Counted from the first letter of the stretch, positions 1 through 34,085 are shown. The stretch: DNA of 64,000 nt from Acidimicrobiia bacterium (GCA_963665765.1 OY762464.1:2601958-2665957), one strand, 5' to 3'. Notes: generated by a model not told the origin, from the letters alone. Program-made: numbers and translations.

Positions 1-2254
1 GGCGGTGGCGTCTCGACTGGCCGAATTGTCGTCCGCCGGTGAGCAGCTTCACTCCGAGGAGAGGAGGAGGGAAGCGCAACTGGCCGAACAGCAGAGGGCG
101 TTGGCCCGGTGGGGCAGGGAGATGGACCGGGTCAAGGCCGAGGTGGTGGAACAAAGGCGGGCTCTGCGGGCCGCCGAGGCCCGGGCTGCTTCGGCCCGGG
201 CGACGATGGCGGAGGCGCAGGGAAAGCGGGAAGCCGCCCGGCGCACCTTGAATCCGGGTGATTCCGACCGCCGGAAGCGATTGGAGTCGCTCACCGGCTG
301 GGCGGGATGGGTCTCCGAGATTCTCCAAGCGCCCCCGGAGTTGGCCGCCGCGGTGGAGGCCGGGCTGGAGGGATGGGCTGAGGCGGCGGCCTTTGAGGGT
401 CCGGTGGCCCTGGGCAACGCGTTGGAAAGGCTGGGAAAGATCCCCGAGGAACAGGGACCGGTGTCGATGGTGAGCGCCCGTTTTCCCGGGGTGGCCGACC
501 TTCCGGCTCGGACCGTGGCCGCCTCGGGCAGCCGGGTGACGCCCTTGGTGGATCTGGTGACCGATGGTGAACAGTTCGCTTTGGCCGCTCGCCTGCTGGG
601 TGATGTGGTCCTGGTGGAGAACTGGAGAAGCGGTTGGGAGGTGGTGGGAAGTCATCCGCGCCTGCGGGCGGTGACCCGACAGGGAGATCTGATCACATTG
701 CGCGGGATTTCCCGGGGTGGGCGGAACCGTCTGCCCGATCTGGTGGCGGCCAACGCCGAGGCCGAAGCGGCGACCGTGGCTTTCCGGTCCCTCCGCATCA
801 AGGTGAAGAGCCTGCGGGCCGCGGCGGAGTCACTGGACGAGAGTCGCGAGAAGCAGTTCAGCAGTCTGCAACTCGGTCGTCAGAAAATGCTGGAATCCCA
901 ACGGGAGGTCGAACGGATCGCGGCGCGTCGCCGGGAGATCGACCACGAAAAGGGCCGTTTGAGAAGGCGTCTGGAATCTTTGATGCAGGCCGAAGCCGCC
1001 CGGGCGCGGCGTTTGGCCGAGTTGGAAGACCATATCACCCGACTGGAAGGCCGGTCGGCGACGCCCGATGAGTCGGACAGGCTTGCCCGACGGTTGGAAG
1101 AGACCTCCCGCGCCCGGGCGGCGGCCGAGGAGGAGTACCGGTCCGGGAGCGCGGCGCTCACCGGACTGGCGGAGCGCCGCCGGCTGGAAAGAGCCAGATA
1201 CGAGCAGTTGGCGGTGGAGGTGGCGGAGATGTCGCGGCTTTCCGACGGCTTTTCGGCAGGATGGTCGGAGGAGGTGTCGGAGATTGCCGCCGCGGCGCTA
1301 CGGCTGATGGCGACCCATCGCGCCTCGTTGGTCGAGCTGGACCGGGCTTCCCGACGGCGCGCTCGGGCCCTGGGGGAGGAGGCCACCGAAGCGAGGAGGG
1401 AAATCAGCCGCTCCGATCAGCAGGAGCGGGAGGCCACCGGTCATTTGGAGACGCTGATCTCCGAGATTTCCCGTCTGGAAGCCCATCGTCAAACCACCGT
1501 GGAAGCACTGTGGGAGATGGGCGCCGATCCTGCCCAGGCGGTCGGCGCGCCCCGGCCCGAGATCAGTGATCCAACGGCGGCCCTGGCCTCGGGGGTGGCC
1601 GAATTGGAGCGGATGAGGCCCATCAATCCCTATGCCGCCGCCGACCTCGCCGCCCTGGAGGAAGAGTTGTCGAAACTGTGCGACCAGCGGGATGACATCG
1701 TGGGGACCGATCGACGCCTGGGAAAAGTGATCTCCGAATTGGAGAAGGAAGCCACCGAGCGGTATCTGGCCACCTTCCGGGAGACCGCCAGAGCATTCGA
1801 GCAGGCCTTCGGGCAGGTGTTTCCCGGGGGGCGGGGGAGGCTTCGCATCGTTGATCCGGCGGATCCGCTCGGCTCGGGAGTGGAGATCCATGCTCGACCG
1901 CAGGGCAAGCGGGTGTCTCGGCTGAGCCTGTTGTCGGGAGGGGAACGGGCACTGGGCGCTCTGGCTTTTCTGTTCGCTCTGATGAGAACGCGGCCCTCTC
2001 CCTTCTATCTGCTGGATGAGATGGACGCCAGCCTGGACGCGGCCAACCTGTATCGGGTGTTGCAGGTGGTCCGCCAACTTCGCTCCCATGCCCAAATCCT
2101 GATCATCACCCATCAACCGCAGACCGCCGAGTTCGCCGAGGTGCTGTATGGGGTCACCATGCCGCCGGGAGGAACCACCCAGGTGGTCTCCCGCCGCATG
2201 GAACGAACCGAGGCTCCGGTCGAGGCATTCCCGGCCCAGGGCCGCTCCGCGTAG
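1..2254 (+). CDS. smc: Chromosome segregation protein SMC, C-terminal portion (5' end lies outside the window)
   Basis: Long coiled-coil region followed by the ABC signature/Walker B block LSGGERALGALAFLFAL...FYLLDEMDASLD and a D-loop/H-loop (ILIITHQ). The ORF is open at the window start. Confidence 0.85.
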   Translation, partial: AVASRLAELSSAGEQLHSEERRREAQLAEQQRALARWGREMDRVKAEVVEQRRALRAAEARAASARATMAEAQGKREAARRTLNPGDSDRRKRLESLTGWAGWVSEILQAPPELAAAVEAGLEGWAEAAAFEGPVALGNALERLGKIPEEQGPVSMVSARFPGVADLPARTVAASGSRVTPLVDLVTDGEQFALAARLLGDVVLVENWRSGWEVVGSHPRLRAVTRQGDLITLRGISRGGRNRLPDLVAANAEAEAATVAFRSLRIKVKSLRAAAESLDESREKQFSSLQLGRQKMLESQREVERIAARRREIDHEKGRLRRRLESLMQAEAARARRLAELEDHITRLEGRSATPDESDRLARRLEETSRARAAAEEEYRSGSAALTGLAERRRLERARYEQLAVEVAEMSRLSDGFSAGWSEEVSEIAAAALRLMATHRASLVELDRASRRRARALGEEATEARREISRSDQQEREATGHLETLISEISRLEAHRQTTVEALWEMGADPAQAVGAPRPEISDPTAALASGVAELERMRPINPYAAADLAALEEELSKLCDQRDDIVGTDRRLGKVISELEKEATERYLATFRETARAFEQAFGQVFPGGRGRLRIVDPADPLGSGVEIHARPQGKRVSRLSLLSGGERALGALAFLFALMRTRPSPFYLLDEMDASLDAANLYRVLQVVRQLRSHAQILIITHQPQTAEFAEVLYGVTMPPGGTTQVVSRRMERTEAPVEAFPAQGRSA

Positions 2255-2305
2255 GAGCAAGGTGGGTTGCTATCGGGCCGGTGAGCCTGCCCGTGGGTCT
2301 TCGGG

Positions 2306-4105
2306 GTGGTCGCAAGGGTGGGTGTCACAGGCGCTCGGTATTCTGAAAGTGTCCCGCAGAAGGCGTTGGCTACGGGTGGAGCGATGGAAATAGCAATGGA
2401 ATCGGTGGGCAGGGTGCTGGGCACCGATGAGTCGACCCCTCTGGCCTTTTGGGTAGGGGTGGCCGAGGATCAGCATCTGCAACTTGACGACATCGTGGCG
2501 GTTGATCGGATCCTGCCGACCGGAGAGATCATTTCGATCTTTGGAGTGGTCGGGCAGATGCGCGCCCGCTATGAGGGCGCCCGGTTCGACTCGGATGTGT
2601 TCTTGATCGCCTCGGGGATTCTGCCGGCCGACGTGTCGGAGGCAGCGCAGGTTCAGGTAACGCGGATCGTGCCGGAAACCTTCGTTCCGCCCTTGCCGGG
2701 GTCCGAGGTGCGTCGGGCGGTCGGCGACGAACGGGACGCCGCCCTTGACATGACCGAGGTGGAACGAAAGTTGCCGGCCGGCCTGACCCGGGACGGACGG
2801 CAGGCGGTCATGCTCGACCTCGATTTCCTGGACGGCACCAAGGGCGCCCATGTCAATATCTCAGGAATCTCGGGGGTCGCCACCAAAACCAGTTACGCAA
2901 CGTTCCTGCTCTACTCCCTGTTCAATTCGGGTGTGCTGGGCGCCGCCGCGGCCAATACCAAGGCCCTCATCTTCAACGTCAAGGGCGAAGACCTGCTCTT
3001 CTTGGACCATCCCAACAACCGCCTGGACGAAGAACAGCGGTCACACTACGCAACGTTGGGACTGCAGGCCGCGCCCTTCCGGTCACTTCGGATCCTTGCT
3101 CCACCACGCATCGGCGACCCCAATGGCACACCCCATACCGGCGCTCGGGTTACCGGTGTTCGCCCCATGTACTGGACGGTTGCCCAGTTCTGCCGGCAAG
3201 GGCTATTGCCCTTTTTGTTCGCCGACGCCGAAGACGAACGACAGCAGTACACGATCGTGGTGCATTCGGTCGCCGCCCAGTTGGAACGCCACGCCAAGAA
3301 TTTCAACCCTTCTGACGGTGCGGTCCGTATCGACGGCCGGACGGCCCGCACGTTTTCCCAGCTGGTCGAGATCATCTGCGACAAGCTCCTCCCCGAAGAC
3401 CCCGACACTCCCCCCGACCCCCTGTGGACCGGACGATCGGTCCACACCGGGACGATCAGGGCGTTCGTGCGCCGGCTCTCATCGTCCGAGCGCCACGTTG
3501 CCCATCTGATCAGGGCCGATATCGACAACGCCGAAACCCATGCTCTGGACCTCGACTCCCAGCAGGTCACGGTGGTCGACCTGCACCTGCTCCACGACCG
3601 AGCGAAGCGGTTTGTGGTTGGGGTGGTGCTCCGACAAGCGTTTGAGGCCAAGGAACAATCCGGTACGGCCGAGCCCCTGCAATTCGTGGTGCTCGACGAA
3701 TTGAACAAATACGCCCCGCGGGCGTCGTCGAGCCCCATCAAGGAAATTCTGCTGGATGTGGCCGAGCGGGGTCGCAGCCTGGGAGTCATTCTGATCGGCG
3801 CCCAGCAGACCGCCAGCGAAGTGGAACGGCGGATCGTTTCCAATTCGGCGGTGCGGGTGGTGGGTCGGTTGGATACCGCCGAGGCCGGACGCGAGCAGTA
3901 TGGTTTCTTGCCCGCCGCCCAACGCCAACGGGCCACGATCCTCAAACCCGGCGCCATGTTCGTCTCCCAGCCGCGCCTTCCGGTGCCGGTGCTGGTCGAG
4001 TTTCCTTTTCCGGCATGGGCCACCCGGTTCGCCGAAGCCGATCTGGACGGAGGGATCGGCGGGCGGGGCGGTCAGCCTGACGACCCATGGGATGGTCTGA
4101 TTTGA
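2306..4105 (+). CDS. herA: HerA/FtsK-class (DUF87-like) ATPase; true start may be the internal Met near 2384
   Basis: Walker B hhhhDE (FVVLDELNKYAP) and an arginine-finger/sensor block (RSLGVILIGAQQTASEV) typical of HerA/VirB4/FtsK ATPases. P-loop region GISGVATKTS is deviant. Sits first in an operon with sbcD-sbcC and a NurA-like gene. Confidence 0.65.
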   Translation: MVARVGVTGARYSESVPQKALATGGAMEIAMESVGRVLGTDESTPLAFWVGVAEDQHLQLDDIVAVDRILPTGEIISIFGVVGQMRARYEGARFDSDVFLIASGILPADVSEAAQVQVTRIVPETFVPPLPGSEVRRAVGDERDAALDMTEVERKLPAGLTRDGRQAVMLDLDFLDGTKGAHVNISGISGVATKTSYATFLLYSLFNSGVLGAAAANTKALIFNVKGEDLLFLDHPNNRLDEEQRSHYATLGLQAAPFRSLRILAPPRIGDPNGTPHTGARVTGVRPMYWTVAQFCRQGLLPFLFADAEDERQQYTIVVHSVAAQLERHAKNFNPSDGAVRIDGRTARTFSQLVEIICDKLLPEDPDTPPDPLWTGRSVHTGTIRAFVRRLSSSERHVAHLIRADIDNAETHALDLDSQQVTVVDLHLLHDRAKRFVVGVVLRQAFEAKEQSGTAEPLQFVVLDELNKYAPRASSSPIKEILLDVAERGRSLGVILIGAQQTASEVERRIVSNSAVRVVGRLDTAEAGREQYGFLPAAQRQRATILKPGAMFVSQPRLPVPVLVEFPFPAWATRFAEADLDGGIGGRGGQPDDPWDGLI

Positions 4106-4116
4106 GGCCGGCTTAA

Positions 4117-5280
4117 GTGAGGCTGCTTCACACTTCCGACTGGCATGTCGGAAAAGCCATCCGAGGGATTTCCCGGGCGGATGAGCATCGGGCGGTACTG
4201 GCGGAGGTCGCCCTGATCGCCGAGCAGGAAGAGGTTGATCTGGTGATCGTCGCCGGTGATGTGTTCGACTCGTCGGCGCCCACCGCCGAAGCAGAAGAAA
4301 TTGTTTATCAGGCTCTCCTCAACCTCTCCGAGACCGGAGCCGAGGTGGCGATGATCGCCGGCAATCATGACAATCCCCGCCGGTTGCGGGCGATTACGCC
4401 CCTTTTGCGGCTCGGGCGGGTGCATGTGGTTGCCGAGCCAACCCGACCCGACGACGGGGGCGTCCTCCCATTGAGAGCTCGTAGCGACCGAAGCGAGATT
4501 CGTCTGGCGATGCTCCCCTTCGTATCCAAGCGCGGCATCGTGCGCGCCAAAGACCTCATTGGCAACCAAGCCTTCGAGCACGCCCAGCAGTACAGCGAGC
4601 GTATGCGCCTGCTGATTGCGGCGCTGTGCGATTCGTTCCGGGGTGACACCGTCAACCTGCTCACCGCCCACACTTTCGTGCTGGGTGGCGCGATGGGAGG
4701 CGGCGAACGACCGGCCCACCTGGTTGAAGAATATGCCGTTATGGCACAGTCCTTCCCGGTGGCGACCATGAGCTACGGGGCGCTCGGTCATCTCCACCGG
4801 CCCCAACGGGTCGGACCGGCGCTCTATTACTGCGGTTCTCCGCTGCAACTTGACTTCGGCGAAACCGATCAGACCAAACAAGTCAATATCGTCACCTTGG
4901 AACCGGGCCTACCAGCCGATGTCCAAGCCGCGCTGCTCACCTCGGGGCGGCCGCTTCGGACACTGAGCGGGACGCTCGACGAACTTGCCTCGATGAGCAC
5001 CCAAGACGATGCCTGGCTGAGGGTGGTCGTGAAAGGTCCGGGCCGGGCAGACCTGGCTCGGACTGTGCGCCAAGTACTCGGCCCCGGCGTGGTCGACGTA
5101 CGGGTGGAATCACCCCAAACGGCCGGCAGGCAACGGCGATTCGATCATCGCAGCCACTCGCCACAAGAGTTGTTCGGTGAGTATCTCACGCACCAGAATG
5201 TCAAAGACACCCGGGTCAGTGACCTGTTCGGTGAGCTGTTGGACGTCCACGGCGACGGGCCGGCGGGACGGCAGTCATGA
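4117..5280 (+). CDS. sbcD: DNA double-strand-break repair nuclease SbcD/Mre11 (calcineurin-like phosphoesterase)
   Basis: N-terminal LHTSDWHVGK and VIVAGDVFD, IAGNHD metallophosphatase motifs. Immediately upstream of, and overlapping (ATGA), the Rad50/SbcC gene. Confidence 0.85.
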   Translation: MRLLHTSDWHVGKAIRGISRADEHRAVLAEVALIAEQEEVDLVIVAGDVFDSSAPTAEAEEIVYQALLNLSETGAEVAMIAGNHDNPRRLRAITPLLRLGRVHVVAEPTRPDDGGVLPLRARSDRSEIRLAMLPFVSKRGIVRAKDLIGNQAFEHAQQYSERMRLLIAALCDSFRGDTVNLLTAHTFVLGGAMGGGERPAHLVEEYAVMAQSFPVATMSYGALGHLHRPQRVGPALYYCGSPLQLDFGETDQTKQVNIVTLEPGLPADVQAALLTSGRPLRTLSGTLDELASMSTQDDAWLRVVVKGPGRADLARTVRQVLGPGVVDVRVESPQTAGRQRRFDHRSHSPQELFGEYLTHQNVKDTRVSDLFGELLDVHGDGPAGRQS

Positions 5281-28845: not shown

Positions 28846-29692
28846 CCACCGCTCCGATGGGGGGCATCCTCTCGCCGATGTGGAGCAGGTCCCCGGCGTG
28901 GCCAAGCCCGACCCGATCCTGGTGGTCGAAAACATGCGCCGGGCCTTTGGGGGTTTGGTGGCGGTCGACGTGGACCATTTGGAGATCCAGCGGGGGATCA
29001 TCACCGCCTTGATCGGACCCAACGGCGCCGGTAAGACCACCTTCTTCAACCTGCTGACCGGGTTCGACAGTCCCGACGCGGGATCGGTGATGTTCGATGG
29101 AAAGGACGTTCAGCGCCTGAATTCGCACCGACGGGCGCAGGCGGGGATGGTGCGGACTTTCCAGCTCACCAAAGCGTTGACCAAACTGTCCGTGTTGGAG
29201 AACATGAAGCTGGGCGCCAAGGGCCAGGTCGGCGAACGCTTCCTGCCGTCGCTGTTGCCACCCCTTTGGAGGTCCCAGGAGAAGGTTATCGAGGAGCGGG
29301 CCCACCAACTGTTGGAGCGGTTCAGCCTCCATCACATGGCGGAGGAGTATTCGGGGACTCTGTCAGGAGGCCAGCGCAAGCTGTTGGAGATGGCCAGAGC
29401 CCTGATGGCCGCCCCGGCGGTGGTTATGTTGGACGAGCCGGTGGCCGGTGTCAATCCTGCTCTGACCCAGTCGCTGCTGGAGCATGTCAAGCGGCTCCCC
29501 GATGAAGGCGTTACGGTGATTTTCGTGGAGCATGATATGGATGTGGTGTGGGATATCTCCGACTGGGTGGTGGTCATAGCCGAAGGGGCGGTGATTGCCG
29601 AAGGTGTTCCCGAATCGATCGGGAAAAATCGGGCGGTGATCGATGCCTATCTGGGATCGGGCCAGGATGTCCTCGAATCCGAGGAGGTATAG
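28835..29692 (+). CDS. livG: Branched-chain amino acid ABC transporter ATP-binding protein LivG
   Basis: GPNGAGKTTFFNLLTG Walker A, LSGGQRKLLEMARAL signature, VMLDEPVAG Walker B. Confidence 0.85.
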   Translation: MSGNHRSDGGHPLADVEQVPGVAKPDPILVVENMRRAFGGLVAVDVDHLEIQRGIITALIGPNGAGKTTFFNLLTGFDSPDAGSVMFDGKDVQRLNSHRRAQAGMVRTFQLTKALTKLSVLENMKLGAKGQVGERFLPSLLPPLWRSQEKVIEERAHQLLERFSLHHMAEEYSGTLSGGQRKLLEMARALMAAPAVVMLDEPVAGVNPALTQSLLEHVKRLPDEGVTVIFVEHDMDVVWDISDWVVVIAEGAVIAEGVPESIGKNRAVIDAYLGSGQDVLESEEV

Positions 29693-29696
29693 GCCG

Positions 29697-30443
29697 GTGA
29701 GCGGAGATAACAGTTCGGGACGCCCGCTGGTGGAGTTGCGCCACCTGGTGGCGGGCTACCTGCCGGGGGTGGACATTCTCAAGCAAGTTGACCTGACCCT
29801 CTACCCGGGGGAGATGATCGGAATCATCGGTCCCAATGGCGCCGGCAAATCAACCTTGCTGAAGGCGCTGTTCGGACTCTTGGATGTCCGTTCGGGAGAG
29901 GTGATCTACAAGGGAGAATCCATCAAGGGGCTGCGGGCTTACGAGTTGGTTGCCAAAGGGGTGGGATACGTGCCCCAGCTCAACAACGTGTTCGCGGCGC
30001 TCACGGTGATGGAGAACCTGGAGATGGGGGTGTACCTGCAGCCGGACAAAACCGCCGAGCGTCTGGAGAGGGTGGTGGAGTTCTTTCCCAGGTTGGGGGA
30101 GCGTCTCGGGCAGCGAGCGGGGCTTCTTTCGGGAGGGGAGCGGCAGATGTTGGCGATGGGCCGGGCTCTGATGATGAATCCGCAGGTGTTGTTGCTGGAC
30201 GAGCCCTCGGCGGGGCTCTCTCCGGTTCTGCAAGATCAGGTATTTGCCCGGACCGGAGACATCAACCGCTCCGGGGTGGCGGTGATCATGGTGGAGCAGA
30301 ACGCCCGGCGGTGCCTGCAGATCTGCCACCGGGGCTATGTGCTGGACCACGGGCGCAACGCCTACACCGGCACCGGGCAGAGTCTGCTGAGTGATCCGAA
30401 AGTGATCGAACTCTACTTGGGGACCTTGGCCCGGGGCGGCTAA
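29697..30443 (+). CDS. livF: Branched-chain amino acid ABC transporter ATP-binding protein LivF
   Basis: GPNGAGKSTLLKALFG, LSGGERQMLAMGRAL, LLLDEPSAGL. GTG 29697 is preceded by a GAGGAGG RBS. Confidence 0.85.
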   Translation: MSGDNSSGRPLVELRHLVAGYLPGVDILKQVDLTLYPGEMIGIIGPNGAGKSTLLKALFGLLDVRSGEVIYKGESIKGLRAYELVAKGVGYVPQLNNVFAALTVMENLEMGVYLQPDKTAERLERVVEFFPRLGERLGQRAGLLSGGERQMLAMGRALMMNPQVLLLDEPSAGLSPVLQDQVFARTGDINRSGVAVIMVEQNARRCLQICHRGYVLDHGRNAYTGTGQSLLSDPKVIELYLGTLARGG

Positions 30444-30502
30444 ACAGGCTAAGGTTTCGGACAATAGATGGGTTCTGCCGTCCCTTGGGTGCCACCCGCC
30501 AA

Positions 30503-30718
30503 CTATTGAGATAGCCACTCTTCCCGTGAGATGTCGGCTCGGTTGAGAAGATCTCTGAGAATGTCCACACGCACCTCTCCGGGGTTTGGGATGCGAAGGG
30601 TTCTCTGACCCTTTCTCATAAAAGGATGATGCGTTCCCGTTTCGGGTCCGGACCAACCGTTTTTCCGCAGGCGCTTGATCAGGTCTCTTTGGCTGATCGG
30701 GGTCAGCCGCAAGCTCAT
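30503..30718 (-). CDS. hicA: Type II toxin HicA (mRNA interferase)
   Basis: 71 aa. LIKRLRKNGWSGPETGTHHPFMRKGQ...RIPNPGE matches the HicA dsRBD-like family (GSHH...F..P pattern). 4-bp overlap with the upstream gene. Confidence 0.75.
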   Translation of the reverse strand: MSLRLTPISQRDLIKRLRKNGWSGPETGTHHPFMRKGQRTLRIPNPGEVRVDILRDLLNRADISREEWLSQ

Positions 30719-31083
30719 GCCATCGCGTACGCGAGATTTATGTGTTCCATTTTGGGGATGTCATTATCACGGTTGGATAGCTTCAAGTCCAGCCATTCAG
30801 TTAACACCGATTCCAGTTCCACCAGAGCATCATTGCGTGTTTCTCCAAACCCCCATGCTCCGTCTACTCCGGCAATGGAAGCGATGAACCCAACGGGGTC
30901 TTGGATAGGACGACAGATCGCATGGAACATGGCGATCCTTATCCACCTTTTAGCCAACTCTTCGGATGAAGGGCTTGAGACATTGTCGTTAGTTAAGACA
31001 TGCTCTGGTACCTCGGGGCGAAGCACTCGAGTCTTTTCTGTGTTCCCTGGCCAAACATGCGGGCTGTAGGTTAGCAAGGTCAT
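30715..31083 (-). CDS. hicB: HicB-family antitoxin-like protein
   Basis: C-terminal DPVGFIASIAGVDGAWGFGETRNDALVELESVLTEWLDL matches the HicB/UPF0150 core (..PGC.TQGDT.EEAL.N..EA..L.LE). No obvious RHH/HTH domain. Confidence 0.55.
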   Translation of the reverse strand: MTLLTYSPHVWPGNTEKTRVLRPEVPEHVLTNDNVSSPSSEELAKRWIRIAMFHAICRPIQDPVGFIASIAGVDGAWGFGETRNDALVELESVLTEWLDLKLSNRDNDIPKMEHINLAYAMA

Positions 31084-31328
31084 ATATCCTCCTCCGGCAC
31101 TGAAATGGACATCACGTTGGTTGATTCGAACATGTAGACCGGGCGACCTAGAGGGTCCTGCTGACCTTCCATGCGAAATATGTTGGTTAATGCCAGTTTC
31201 ACACGCAACAGAGTTCCATCATCAAGAAGATAACTCATCCAAGGCTCCTCGCCTTCAGCGCGGAACCCGAGTTCAACGGCATCAATCATCTCGCCGTTGG
31301 GAGATCTAATCTTCCGTTTCCTTTCCAT
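31080..31328 (-). CDS. Small hypothetical protein (82 aa), translationally coupled upstream of hicB-hicA
   Basis: ATG at 31328 is preceded by a strong AAAGGAG RBS (31346-31340). The stop overlaps the hicB start by 4 bp. No recognisable family. GC ~50%. Confidence 0.45.
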   Translation of the reverse strand: MERKRKIRSPNGEMIDAVELGFRAEGEEPWMSYLLDDGTLLRVKLALTNIFRMEGQQDPLGRPVYMFESTNVMSISVPEEDI

Positions 31329-31427
31329 GGTGGTAAACACTCCTTTGACCCGCTTAACTGTTCGAACCAGGTGGGGACCGGGTAAAACCGGCCCCCACCT
31401 GGTCATTTTGGTTAGTTTCGTTTGACT

Positions 31428-33944
31428 CTATCCACCCGCAAAGACGTACTCGTCGAGGGATGAGTCGGGTCGGTCGCCGCCGTTGTAGGTGGCGATGCGG
31501 AAGCTGGCTGCGGCGGGTTCGCCGGCGTCTACGAATTCGTAGGGTCCGCCTACTCCGTCGTAGTCGGGGTCGCCGCCGTTTTCGATGATGTCTTTGCAGT
31601 CGGCGAAGCTGGTGCACTTGGTGCCGCCGCGGGTGACGTCGTTGATCTCGGTTCCGATGTCCACCGGGTTGTCGCTGTTGGCGGCCAACGCGGCCAGGGC
31701 CACGATCACGATGGCGTCGTAGGTCTCGGCGCCGTAGGCGTACACCTCGGACAGGCCGCCTTCGTAGGCGCCGTCCAGTCGGGCGGTGAAGTCGGAGATG
31801 GAACTGAGATCCACCGAGGGTTCGGTGCCGCGCATGCCTGTGATGATGGAGGGATCGGAAAGCTCGGCGCCGATACCGCCGATGTTTCCGTCAACTCCGT
31901 ACACGTTGGTGGCGGACGTTGCGCCGATGTTCCGTTCGTGCATGGTCACCAATATGGTGGCCGATTCTTGGAACCCGATCACCACTACCGCGTCGGGGGA
32001 GGCGTCTGCCAACTGGTCGACCTCGGCGTCGAAGTTGTCGGTGCCGGGGGCGTAGGCGATGAACGGATCCACCGTGCCGCCCTGGCTCTCGAAGTTTTCC
32101 TTGAACGAGTCGGCCAGACCCTGCCCGTAGGACTCCTGTCGGTAGATCACCCCGGCGATCTCGTTGCCTTCCGACGCCACCAGGTCGGCCAGGACCTTGC
32201 CCTGCAACAAGTCGGAGGGGGCGGTGCGGAAATACAGGCCGTTGTCGTCGTAGGTGGTGAAGTCGGGGGAAGTGTTGGCCGGGGAGAAGTGGATCACGTT
32301 GTTGCCGGTGATCTTGTCGATCACCAGCTTGGAAACAGCCGAGCTGGCGGCTCCGATGATGGCGTCCACGTCCAAGGCCAGCAGCCGGTCGACCTCGGGG
32401 TTGGCGATGTCCTGGTTGGTGTCGCCGGAGTCTCCCTCATGCAACACCACATCGTTGCCCAACACACCTCCCGCCGAATTGATATCGGCAATCGCCAACC
32501 GGGCGCCCGCCACCTCCGGCGGACCCAAGAAAGCCAAATCACCGGTAACCGGCAACAACGTACCAATCACCAACTGACCGGTGGCCATTTCCGTCATGGC
32601 TGCGCCGTCGTCACCGGACCCGCCGGCGAAGACATATTCATCCAACTCCGGGTCGGGTCGGTCGCCGCCGTTGTAGGTGGCGATGCGGAAGCTGGCTGCG
32701 GCGGGTTCGCCGGCGTCTACGAATTCGTAGGGTCCGCCTACTCCGTCGTAGTCGGGGTCGCCGCCGTTTTCGATGATGTCTTTGCAGTCGGCGAAGCTGG
32801 TGCACTTGGTGCCGCCGCGGGTGACGTCGTTGATCTCGGTTCCGATGTCCACCGGGTTGTCGCTGTTGGCGGCCAACGCGGCCAGGGCCACGATCACGAT
32901 GGCGTCGTAGGTCTCGGCGCCGTAGGCGTACACCTCGGACAGGCCGCCTTCGTAGGCGCCGTCCAGTCGGGCGGTGAAGTCGGAGATGGAACTGAGATCC
33001 ACCGAGGGTTCGGTGCCGCGCATGCCTGTGATGATGGAGGGATCGGAAAGCTCGGCGCCGATACCGCCGATGTTTCCGTCAACTCCGTACACGTTGGTGG
33101 CGGACGTTGCGCCGATGTTCCGTTCGTGCATGGTCACCAATATGGTGGCCGATTCTTGGAACCCGATCACCACTACCGCGTCGGGGGAGGCGTCTGCCAA
33201 CTGGTCGACCTCGGCGTCGAAGTTGTCGGTGCCGGGGGCGTAGGCGATGAACGGATCCACCGTGCCGCCCTGGCTCTCGAAGTTTTCCTTGAACGAGTCG
33301 GCCAGACCCTGCCCGTAGGACTCCTGTCGGTAGATCACCCCGGCGATCTCGTTGCCTTCCGACGCCACCAGGTCGGCCAGGACCTTGCCCTGCAACAAGT
33401 CGGAGGGGGCGGTGCGGAAATACAGGCCGTTGTCGTCGTAGGTGGTGAAGTCGGGGGAAGTGTTGGCCGGGGAGAAGTGGATCACGTTGTTGCCGGTGAT
33501 CTTGTCGATCACCAGCTTGGAAACAGCCGAGCTGGCGGCTCCGATGATGGCGTCCACGTCCAAGGCCAGCAGCCGGTCGACCTCGGGGTTGGCGATGTCC
33601 TGGTTGGTGTCGCCGGAGTCTCCCTCATGCAACACCACATCGTTGCCCAACACACCTCCCGCCGAATTGATATCGGCAATCGCCAACCGGGCGCCCGCCA
33701 CCTCCGGCGGACCCAAGAAAGCCAAATCACCGGTAACCGGCAACAACGTACCAATCACCAACTGACCGTCTGTCATACCCATGTCATCGGGGGTGTCATC
33801 GGGGGCCGCGGTGGTGGCGGGAGTCTGGGTGGTGGGAGTCGCTTCCGTCACTTCGGTCGCTTCGTCGTCTCCGCAGGCGGTCGCCACCAACGCCATGATT
33901 GCCATGATGGCCACCAGCCTGAGATAACTCTTGGTTCTATTCAT
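31428..33944 (-). CDS. Lipoprotein ABC substrate-binding protein, Leu/Ile/Val-binding (LivJ/K-like, PBP type I), internally duplicated into two nearly identical SBP domains
   Basis: Lipobox LVATAC after MNRTKSYLRLVAIMAIMA. The body is LivJ-like (GTLLPVTGDLAFLGPPEVAGARLAIADINSAGGVLG...). The whole ~372-aa domain occurs twice, with DNA identity 100% over 1117 bp. RBS AAGGAAGG before ATG 33944. Confidence 0.85.
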   Translation of the reverse strand: MNRTKSYLRLVAIMAIMALVATACGDDEATEVTEATPTTQTPATTAAPDDTPDDMGMTDGQLVIGTLLPVTGDLAFLGPPEVAGARLAIADINSAGGVLGNDVVLHEGDSGDTNQDIANPEVDRLLALDVDAIIGAASSAVSKLVIDKITGNNVIHFSPANTSPDFTTYDDNGLYFRTAPSDLLQGKVLADLVASEGNEIAGVIYRQESYGQGLADSFKENFESQGGTVDPFIAYAPGTDNFDAEVDQLADASPDAVVVIGFQESATILVTMHERNIGATSATNVYGVDGNIGGIGAELSDPSIITGMRGTEPSVDLSSISDFTARLDGAYEGGLSEVYAYGAETYDAIVIVALAALAANSDNPVDIGTEINDVTRGGTKCTSFADCKDIIENGGDPDYDGVGGPYEFVDAGEPAAASFRIATYNGGDRPDPELDEYVFAGGSGDDGAAMTEMATGQLVIGTLLPVTGDLAFLGPPEVAGARLAIADINSAGGVLGNDVVLHEGDSGDTNQDIANPEVDRLLALDVDAIIGAASSAVSKLVIDKITGNNVIHFSPANTSPDFTTYDDNGLYFRTAPSDLLQGKVLADLVASEGNEIAGVIYRQESYGQGLADSFKENFESQGGTVDPFIAYAPGTDNFDAEVDQLADASPDAVVVIGFQESATILVTMHERNIGATSATNVYGVDGNIGGIGAELSDPSIITGMRGTEPSVDLSSISDFTARLDGAYEGGLSEVYAYGAETYDAIVIVALAALAANSDNPVDIGTEINDVTRGGTKCTSFADCKDIIENGGDPDYDGVGGPYEFVDAGEPAAASFRIATYNGGDRPDSSLDEYVFAGG
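31464..32580. repeat. Copy A of a 1117-bp perfect direct repeat (period 1188 bp) inside the SBP gene
   Basis: Identical to 32652-33768. Duplicated six-frame ORFs at a fixed +1188 offset (31706/32894, 31786/32974, 32254/33442, 32321/33509) confirm it. Confidence 0.9.
32652..33768. repeat. Copy B of the 1117-bp perfect direct repeat
   Basis: See copy A. The 71-bp junction (32581-32651) and the outer flanks are homologous but diverged. Confidence 0.9.
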
Positions 33945-33984
33945 CACTTTGCGCCCTTCCTTTTCTATCACAAACAGTGTGATG

Positions 33985-33998
33985 TCTTGCGTCACGGA
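33985..33998. promoter_or_regulatory. 14-bp perfect palindrome GTTTACAAGTAAAC in the SBP gene 5' region (candidate operator); additional TCACA-N5-TGTGA inverted repeat nearby
   Basis: Seen directly in the sequence, ~45 bp upstream of the SBP start codon on the transcribed strand. Confidence 0.3.
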
Positions 33999-34085
33999 GT
34001 TTACAAGTAAACCAACCGCAATTGTAGGCCGGTCCCCCACCGCCGGAGCCCGGATATGCCCGGCGGCATAACCAGGTACGGGTGT

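Follow-up and report, generated by a model that had tools for sequence, protein, structure and literature searches.

An orfX-hicB-hicA cassette in an Acidimicrobiia genome and its family of small, unannotated proteins

HicAB systems are among the most widespread toxin-antitoxin (TA) modules. Here, we describe a three-gene form of such a module, located at positions 30503-31346 of a 64,000-nt stretch of the genome of an Acidimicrobiia bacterium (GCA_963665765.1, OY762464.1:2601958-2665957; the whole stretch is hereafter called the window, and positions are counted from its first letter). Three open reading frames (ORFs) on the minus strand encode, in this order, an 82-amino-acid (aa) protein that we call OrfX, a HicB-like protein and HicA. 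The best explanation is that orfX-hicB-hicA forms a self-contained type II TA unit that was probably acquired horizontally, with its insertion resting on base composition and on the mobility of the cassette. The cassette looks like a previously undescribed three-part version of hicBA, built with an unnamed protein family. As to the additional protein, we favor, tentatively and with less than even confidence, the reading that OrfX is an accessory third subunit that acts through an N-terminal extension of HicB to control the antitoxin.

Three coupled genes and their recurrence

The cassette comprises the following features.

31328..31080, minus strand: orfX, 82 aa, first gene of the cassette
31346-31340, minus strand: Shine-Dalgarno sequence AAAGGAG, 11 nt ahead of the orfX ATG, read directly from the sequence
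31083..30715, minus strand: HicB-like gene, 122 aa, whose start overlaps the orfX stop (ATGA)
30718..30503, minus strand: hicA, 71 aa, whose start overlaps the hicB stop (ATGA, 30715-30718)

An earlier interpretation made from the DNA alone (the sequence-only reading) had described three minus-strand genes joined by 4-bp overlaps, the first of them preceded by a perfect ribosome-binding site (RBS). The three ORFs were confirmed, both junctions are 4-nt ATGA stop/start overlaps, and the AAAGGAG motif is present at the expected place. The six close homologs of orfX, five of them found by a word-indexed search at 62-84% identity, are all exactly 82 aa long, and its start is therefore placed at 31328. 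A longer version of 108 aa, starting at the ATG at 31406, was rejected because homologs are 82-90 aa long and the RBS precedes 31328.

OrfX has no named family in Pfam, NCBIfam, PADLOC or PHROGs, and a profile search against the sequences of the PDB gave no match. It does, however, have many relatives. An exhaustive profile search returned 1,122 cluster representatives at E<=1e-3, 121 of them at E<=1e-10, and a second, word-indexed search gave 201 members, all labeled 'hypothetical protein' and none with a Pfam domain. Most family members are single-domain proteins of ~85 aa, and tandem two-domain forms of 150-330 aa also occur. The family consensus is ..E.WNEYLLDDG(S/T)V.K.KLV.T.V.R.DG.YD.EGNPVY...S.N...VSAP..LRR. 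The ratio of nonsynonymous to synonymous substitution rates (dN/dS) of orfX, determined for the window gene versus two diverged copies, is ~0.07, which is the lowest of the three genes (hicB, 0.09-0.23; hicA, 0.09-0.16) and indicates strong purifying selection. The extra 82-aa gene proposed in the earlier reading is thus real, and the possibility that it is a spurious ORF, lacking homologs and conservation, is clearly contradicted by the size of the family and the low dN/dS.

The second gene encodes a protein that matches UPF0150 (PF21748) over residues 47-106 in Pfam (E 3e-9, 37 bits, cutoff 27.3). The profile of its family matches the solved UPF0150 protein TTHA0281 (2dsy_A) in the PDB at E 4.5e-6, and when 37 ORFs that follow orfX were examined, 23 matched UPF0150. 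On these grounds, we accept the 122-aa protein as a member of the HicB family, the core of which would neutralize HicA, as in characterized HicAB systems. The third gene encodes a small and very basic protein (71 aa, isoelectric point (pI) 11.4). The profile of its family matches 1whz_A (E 1.9e-4) and, less closely (E 0.03-0.15), five solved HicA chains, among them 6g26_E, 4p78_C, 5yrz_B and 4c26_A, and relatives in the same cassette family have precomputed matches to PF07927. The catalytic-type His is kept: the sequence G28-T-H30-H31-P-F aligns with the GSH / GSAHHF of solved HicAs. We therefore accept this protein as a divergent HicA-family member and, by analogy with characterized HicAB systems, a presumed RNase toxin. 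The presence of a hicBA-type TA pair, as claimed in the sequence-only reading, is borne out by these profile and solved-structure matches.

Two variations among the HicA proteins were observed. In one clade the catalytic-type His is replaced (L022 2264-2491, L035 4641-4862 and L046 4700-4888); these proteins read RSRETF, RSREPF and RSKETF in place of G.xHxFM, and all three cassette genes are kept. The toxins of this clade may be inactive or mechanistically altered. Separately, the clade of the window HicA (window 30503-30718, L001 and L004) has lost the 'H-R-G' from the PNPH.GD motif that is conserved elsewhere; its site reads PNP---GEV, a deletion of 3-4 residues that is common to the closest relatives.

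To see how often the three genes occur together, we used a genome scan with one genome per species, seeded with orfX alone, and rescanned the 50 resulting loci with our own hidden Markov models for the three proteins. The full orfX-hicB-hicA set is present in 19 of the 50 loci, orfX-hicB in 5 and orfX-hicA in 1, and orfX is alone in about 25. Wherever partner genes occur, gene order and the use of a single strand are constant. In 18 of the 24 loci that have both orfX and hicB, the stop codon of the former shares 4 or 1 nt with the start codon of the latter. The hosts include Acidimicrobiia, other Actinomycetota, and metagenome-assembled genomes (MAGs) of a deltaproteobacterium and a member of the Burkholderiales. 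The same hicB and hicA accompany an 84%-identical orfX in another neighborhood, which contains DUF1697, SAM_HAT and FixO genes, and the trio is present in unrelated neighborhoods: L003, the soil contigs L063-67, and L068, where it lies between transposases beside a TrwC relaxase gene. Two viral contigs of IMG/VR carry it as well, in one case by an integrase gene and in the other by TerL-like and AAA_25 genes. When P0011, a member of the orfX family, was compared with cultured plasmids and phages by tblastn, no match was obtained. That dozens of independent loci contain these three genes with an identical order excludes a chance arrangement, and the linkage and stop/start overlaps in many unrelated genomes and contexts uphold the proposal that the extra gene is coupled to hicB-hicA.

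The three genes also change together. Over 23 distinct cassettes, pairwise divergences correlate with r 0.76 for orfX-hicB, 0.60 for orfX-hicA and 0.62 for hicB-hicA, and values as high were obtained in 0 of 2,000 permutations; the cassette genes therefore travel and diverge together. Mean pairwise identity in this set is 54% for orfX and 41% and 48% for the other two genes, making orfX the most conserved of the three.

The base composition is consistent with the unit having come from elsewhere. The sequence-only reading had noted a segment of ~50% GC between the liv operon and the binding-protein gene, and the values agree with this: GC is 0.50-0.55 over 30500-31400, a patch of ~0.95 kb, versus 0.60-0.67 in the flanks, and GC at third codon positions (GC3) is 0.54-0.61 for orfX, hicB and hicA versus 0.79-0.83 for four neighboring genes. 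These data support the view that the segment is compositionally foreign. Elsewhere, too, the cassette is usually poorer in GC than the adjoining sequence, as seen in 10 of 11 additional loci. The comparison of the junction with related genomes, suggested earlier, showed that a relative that is ~80% identical, an Acidimicrobiia MAG (L001 = L007), carries the same trio at the same site, between the binding-protein gene and livF. Hence, the acquisition is older than the split of the window genome and this relative.

The HicB extension and the possible role of OrfX

The HicB of the window consists of a UPF0150/HicB-fold core (about residues 43-117) preceded by an N-terminal extension of ~42 aa. 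Searches with Pfam detected no DNA-binding domain of the helix-turn-helix (HTH), ribbon-helix-helix (RHH) or Phd/YefM type in this protein, the N-terminal 46 residues of which gave nothing at E<=1 beyond noise, and none was detected in the HicB relatives encoded downstream of orfX. The orfX-linked HicBs are 116-166 aa long and have in common a conserved core of ~76 residues (W..A..HA ... G.W..G ... W..LK..DGD.DIP), ahead of which there is an extension of roughly 40-90 residues that is variable in length and essentially unalignable in sequence. A search seeded with this HicB subfamily returned 51 homologs; 39 of these have 112 aa or more, and the other 12 are short.

Loci with this HicB core and no orfX are informative in this respect. 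Two of them (L075 and L077), both near acyl-CoA dehydrogenase genes and the former adjoining dnaG, encode a short HicB (105 and 79 aa, respectively, as called), with hicA directly downstream at least in L075. In another (L076, 3001-3294), HicB begins with MEHKSQIPCRDGKPLDVAEVG, which corresponds to the first ~21 residues of an OrfX homolog and is in frame with the HicB core, and hicA is intact downstream; the protein cluster of this HicB has 9 member sequences. As judged from its sequence, L076 is the product of one natural in-frame deletion that took out most of orfX together with the HicB extension, the rest having survived. A further orfX-less locus, L069, the only one returned by a metagenome scan seeded with HicB, is a decaying remnant: hicB lacks part of its 5' end, and the His of HicA is changed to Cys. 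In the sample examined, every HicB that accompanies orfX has the extension, and those without orfX do not.

This tie between the extension and orfX favors the reading that OrfX acts via the HicB extension, in the manner of a chaperone or a regulator, the two roles suggested for the extra gene in the sequence-only reading. According to this reading, OrfX would be made just before HicB through translational coupling and would bind the N-terminal extension, thereby setting the stability or activity of the antitoxin; the logic would be that of toxin-antitoxin-chaperone (TAC) systems, carried out by a protein of unrelated fold. OrfX may also be responsible for autoregulation, a task for which this HicB has no DNA-binding domain of its own.

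The absence of a recognizable DNA-binding domain from HicB may be explained in another way, namely that OrfX is a separate DNA-binding autorepressor, like omega, PaaR2 and HipB, in which case binding to the extension would not be required. The gene order would then be regulator-antitoxin-toxin, and the orfX family has a conserved basic N-terminal strand (consensus xxRKxKI). The control of small hicBA modules devoid of a DNA-binding domain is, moreover, an acknowledged open question (PMC10865869). Some support could also come from the orfX-less locus L072, where an AlpA-type HTH is fused N-terminally to the same HicB core, although this fusion may reflect the insertion of an element or an assembly error, being located on a contig of 2x coverage beside an integrase gene. 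The fusion was initially taken as strong support for a regulator; given the low coverage, the adjacent integrase and the lack of an HTH in sister loci, it was downgraded to weak support. Other considerations oppose an autorepressor: OrfX is acidic (pI 4.6, family median 5.3), its similarity to DNA-binding folds is limited to non-significant SH3/Tudor-like or Cren7-like matches, no significant inverted repeat was found upstream of orfX in 25 cassette loci and the one in the window depends on its local context, and the variable HicB extension would be left unexplained. We therefore regard an autorepressor role as unlikely, although it is the main alternative to the favored reading. With respect to L072 itself, positions 1-3700 contain an integrase gene, an insertion sequence (IS)-type HTH gene, an MNT/HepT toxin-antitoxin pair, the AlpA-HTH::HicB fusion and then a frameshifted hicA; an integrative element may have inserted at the 5' end of the hicBA locus.

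The AlphaFold2 model of OrfX, based on 119 sequences, is all-beta, with a predicted local distance difference test (pLDDT) score of 91.4. A Foldseek search of this model against solved structures gave nothing significant (best E 0.78), the non-significant matches including the SH3/Tudor-like and Cren7-like ones already mentioned. As modeled, OrfX resembles a small barrel to which a hairpin has been added at the N-terminus, with no demonstrable relative among solved structures. A bolder version of the favored reading can be formulated on this basis: OrfX would represent a new small beta-barrel family (>1,000 clusters, in bacteria and archaea), the hicBA-linked form of which is a third subunit that the system cannot do without, gating the release of the toxin by docking on the N-terminal extension of HicB, either as a sensor or as a new antitoxin-specific chaperone or regulator, so that the cassette would constitute a fifteenth, tricistronic HicA class. 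We consider it rather doubtful that all of this holds.

The model also bears on the idea that OrfX is a sensor or decoy for a phage or stress signal, which would release or activate HicA in a defense module of the abortive-infection type. A small barrel with the conserved aromatic and acidic residues W30, Y33, Y65, E27 and D37 would, as predicted, suit the binding of a ligand or peptide, cassettes occur on mobile elements and proviral contigs, and HicA contexts have been argued to be defense-related (PMC10865869). However, none of the three proteins has a PADLOC match at E<=1, and the window cassette lies between metabolic genes and not in a defense island. A sensor or decoy role of this kind is therefore, in our opinion, improbable to a high degree. 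Equally slim is the chance that OrfX binds HicA directly, serving as a second antitoxin or as a mimic of nucleic acid. Such a role would fit the pairing of a small acidic OrfX with a very basic HicA (pI 4.6 vs. 11.4) and the co-inheritance of orfX and hicA, but the toxin-binding core is already complete in HicB, the orfX-hicA divergence correlation (0.60) is below that of orfX-hicB (0.76), and in the L076-type deletion OrfX is lost yet hicA stays intact.

Several observations weigh against the reading in which OrfX acts on HicB as a third subunit. First, OrfX has no resemblance to SecB, to any other known chaperone or to a known DNA-binding fold. Second, few independent loci without orfX underlie its match with the extension, some of them on contigs of 2-3x coverage, and three genes that are inherited together would be expected to diverge together for that reason alone. 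Third, the window HicA scores just under the gathering cutoff for HicA_toxin (PF07927; 26.0 bits, cutoff 27). Finally, about half of the orfX homologs found stand alone. In a neighbor-joining tree, these standalone copies form clades of their own: an actinobacterial Gaiellaceae-like clade, an Omnitrophota/Brocadiia clade, a Chloroflexota pair and archaeal tandem-domain forms. In the Gaiellaceae-like clade, orfX is monocistronic, has a native GC3 of 0.83-0.96, and lies near EamA, YkuD and other ordinary genes. To judge from these sequences, the orfX family has, or can have, a function that is independent of HicBA. The claim that OrfX is purely a TA component is accordingly limited, because about half of the family has no TA partner.

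These standalone copies also bring up the view that OrfX is a small protein with a role of its own, transcribed together with hicBA as a mere passenger or as stabilized cargo, and plays no part in toxin control. Family members without hicBA include a clade that has been inherited vertically and keeps its place on the chromosome, as well as the tandem-domain archaeal forms, and an orfX-less hicBA with the same HicB core exists. On the other side, the fixed gene order and the stop/start overlaps recur across many phyla and contexts, orfX is the most conserved of the three genes, its divergence correlates with that of hicB at least as well as that of hicB does with that of hicA, and the HicB extension is present whenever orfX is. 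A passenger is hence quite unlikely, and an accessory subunit working through the HicB extension remains the reading that we prefer for the hicBA-linked proteins.

The standalone copies deserve some further description. In the Gaiellaceae-like clade, orfX (within L029-L050, ~3989-4258) is partly syntenic, being located 3' of an EamA transporter gene and an unannotated gene for a 233-aa protein, and beside a YkuD L,D-transpeptidase gene; no hicBA was found within 4 kb of it. Among neighboring genes chosen by their GC3, no recurrent or TA-like partner is conserved in the standalone clades, and PilZ, considered as a recurring orfX partner in the Omnitrophota/Planctomycetota clade, was not confirmed. 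Seven proteins (P0039, P0040, P0044, P0055, P0056, P0075 and P0114) of 240-330 aa, low-GC-looking and probably archaeal, contain two tandem OrfX-like domains, and their variable C-terminal tail has no Pfam match. Tandem forms are also present in L054 and L056 (Nitrosopumilaceae).

Relation to known HicAB and three-component systems

In a recent survey, 14 genetic contexts of HicA were distinguished, all of them bicistronic or fused and none with three cistrons (Gerdes 2024, mBio, PMC10865869). The closest of these is Class 2, which is bicistronic, with hicB followed by hicA, and which encodes a HicB of 63-103 aa without a DNA-binding domain (PMC10865869). The cassette shares with Class 2 the hicB-then-hicA order, the overlapping genes, a HicB fold without HTH, RHH or Phd/YefM and a small single-domain HicA. 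It differs from Class 2 in having three cistrons and a longer HicB (122 aa in the window, 116-166 aa in relatives), the additional length being due to the N-terminal extension. Unlike the canonical HicB proteins of Gerdes classes 3-6, the window HicB has no fused HTH, RHH or Phd/YefM domain.

The HicA-HicB-SecB(TA) system of Methylomonas is another relevant case; its antitoxin has a chaperone-addiction extension that is variable (Bordes et al. 2016, PMC5105189). Both this TAC system and the cassette are three-gene modules of the HicAB type, and both have a variable antitoxin extension that co-occurs with the third gene. The differences are considerable: the third protein of the cassette is not SecB-like but an 82-aa all-beta protein with no Pfam or structure match, for which a chaperone role can only be supposed; the extension is N-terminal rather than C-terminal; and the third gene is the first of the operon rather than the last. 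Literature searches for tripartite or three-gene HicAB systems other than TAC found none.

Three-component TA systems with a separate regulator include omega-epsilon-zeta, paaR2-paaA2-parE2 and hipBST, in which omega is an RHH protein and PaaR2 and HipB are HTH proteins. Their order, with the first gene followed by antitoxin and toxin, is the same as that of the cassette, and their antitoxins likewise have no DNA-binding domain of their own. In contrast to omega, PaaR2 and HipB, OrfX has no recognized DNA-binding fold and is acidic, and no operator-like repeats were found upstream of its gene.

By sequence profile, the closest solved relatives of the HicB core and HicA are TTHA0281 (2dsy) and TTHA1913 (1whz) of Thermus thermophilus, respectively. 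These are single-domain proteins of 87 and 70 aa, and TTHA0281, unlike the window HicB, has no N-terminal extension. We know of no orfX-like partner for TTHA0281 or TTHA1913.

For one large subgroup of HicAB systems without a DNA-binding domain, a coupled and conserved third gene would be a concrete and testable answer to the question of how they are controlled, and it would add a new example of a three-component TA architecture in which the additional protein is unrelated. The orfX family is large, phylogenetically broad and wholly unannotated, and its tie to HicBA offers a first experimental handle on it. So far, the cassette is found only in uncultured lineages, which is probably why it has been overlooked.

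Genomic setting and upstream region

The neighboring features are the following.

29643..30443, plus strand: livF-like ABC ATPase gene (Pfam ABC_tran; GC3 0.81), last gene of a livHMGF-like operon, convergent with the cassette
31428..34040, minus strand: gene for a branched-chain-type substrate-binding protein (two Peripla_BP_6 domains; GC3 0.83), directly upstream of the cassette on the same strand
31366-31403, strand not applicable: GC-rich inverted repeat with 16-nt arms, 94% complementary, between the binding-protein stop and orfX

According to Pfam, the plus-strand flank contains two BPD_transp_2 permease genes and two ABC ATPase genes and ends at 30443; the minus-strand flank contains carboxyltransferase, biotin carboxylase and double Peripla_BP_6 binding-protein genes and ends at 31428. 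These domains agree with the accA-pccB-binding-protein string and the livHMGF operon named in the sequence-only reading. The cassette thus follows the binding-protein gene on the minus strand and converges with the permease operon.

The inverted repeat at 31366-31403 was considered as a cassette operator and rejected, as a hairpin at this position occurs only where the binding-protein gene is upstream (the window, L001 and L002), and no significant inverted repeat was found within 130 nt upstream of orfX in the 25 other cassette loci. The hairpins of L001 and L002 differ in sequence from that of the window. Most likely, the repeat serves the binding-protein gene as a terminator and does not belong to the cassette. 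In one Acidimicrobiales cassette clade (L008-L013), a common TACAC(T/A) motif is located 20-60 nt 5' of orfX; it fits the actinobacterial TANNNT -10 element and is followed in L008, L012 and L013 by a GGCGC-N4-GCGCC palindrome. It should be noted that these loci are closely related, so that the conservation of the motif is by itself uninformative.

The binding-protein gene upstream of the cassette (31428-34040, minus strand) has an unusual structure. Part of it is duplicated internally, head to tail and at an offset of 1188 nt, the copies being 100% identical across ~1,120 nt, and it encodes a protein of 870 aa with two Peripla_BP_6 domains. Its ortholog in the ~80%-identical relative (L001 3386-5911) has the same duplicated structure, with an offset of 1185 and two copies that likewise show 100% identity. 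From one genome to the other, the identity of the repeat unit is just 80%. This pattern points to concerted evolution by gene conversion, or else to parallel assembly artefacts.

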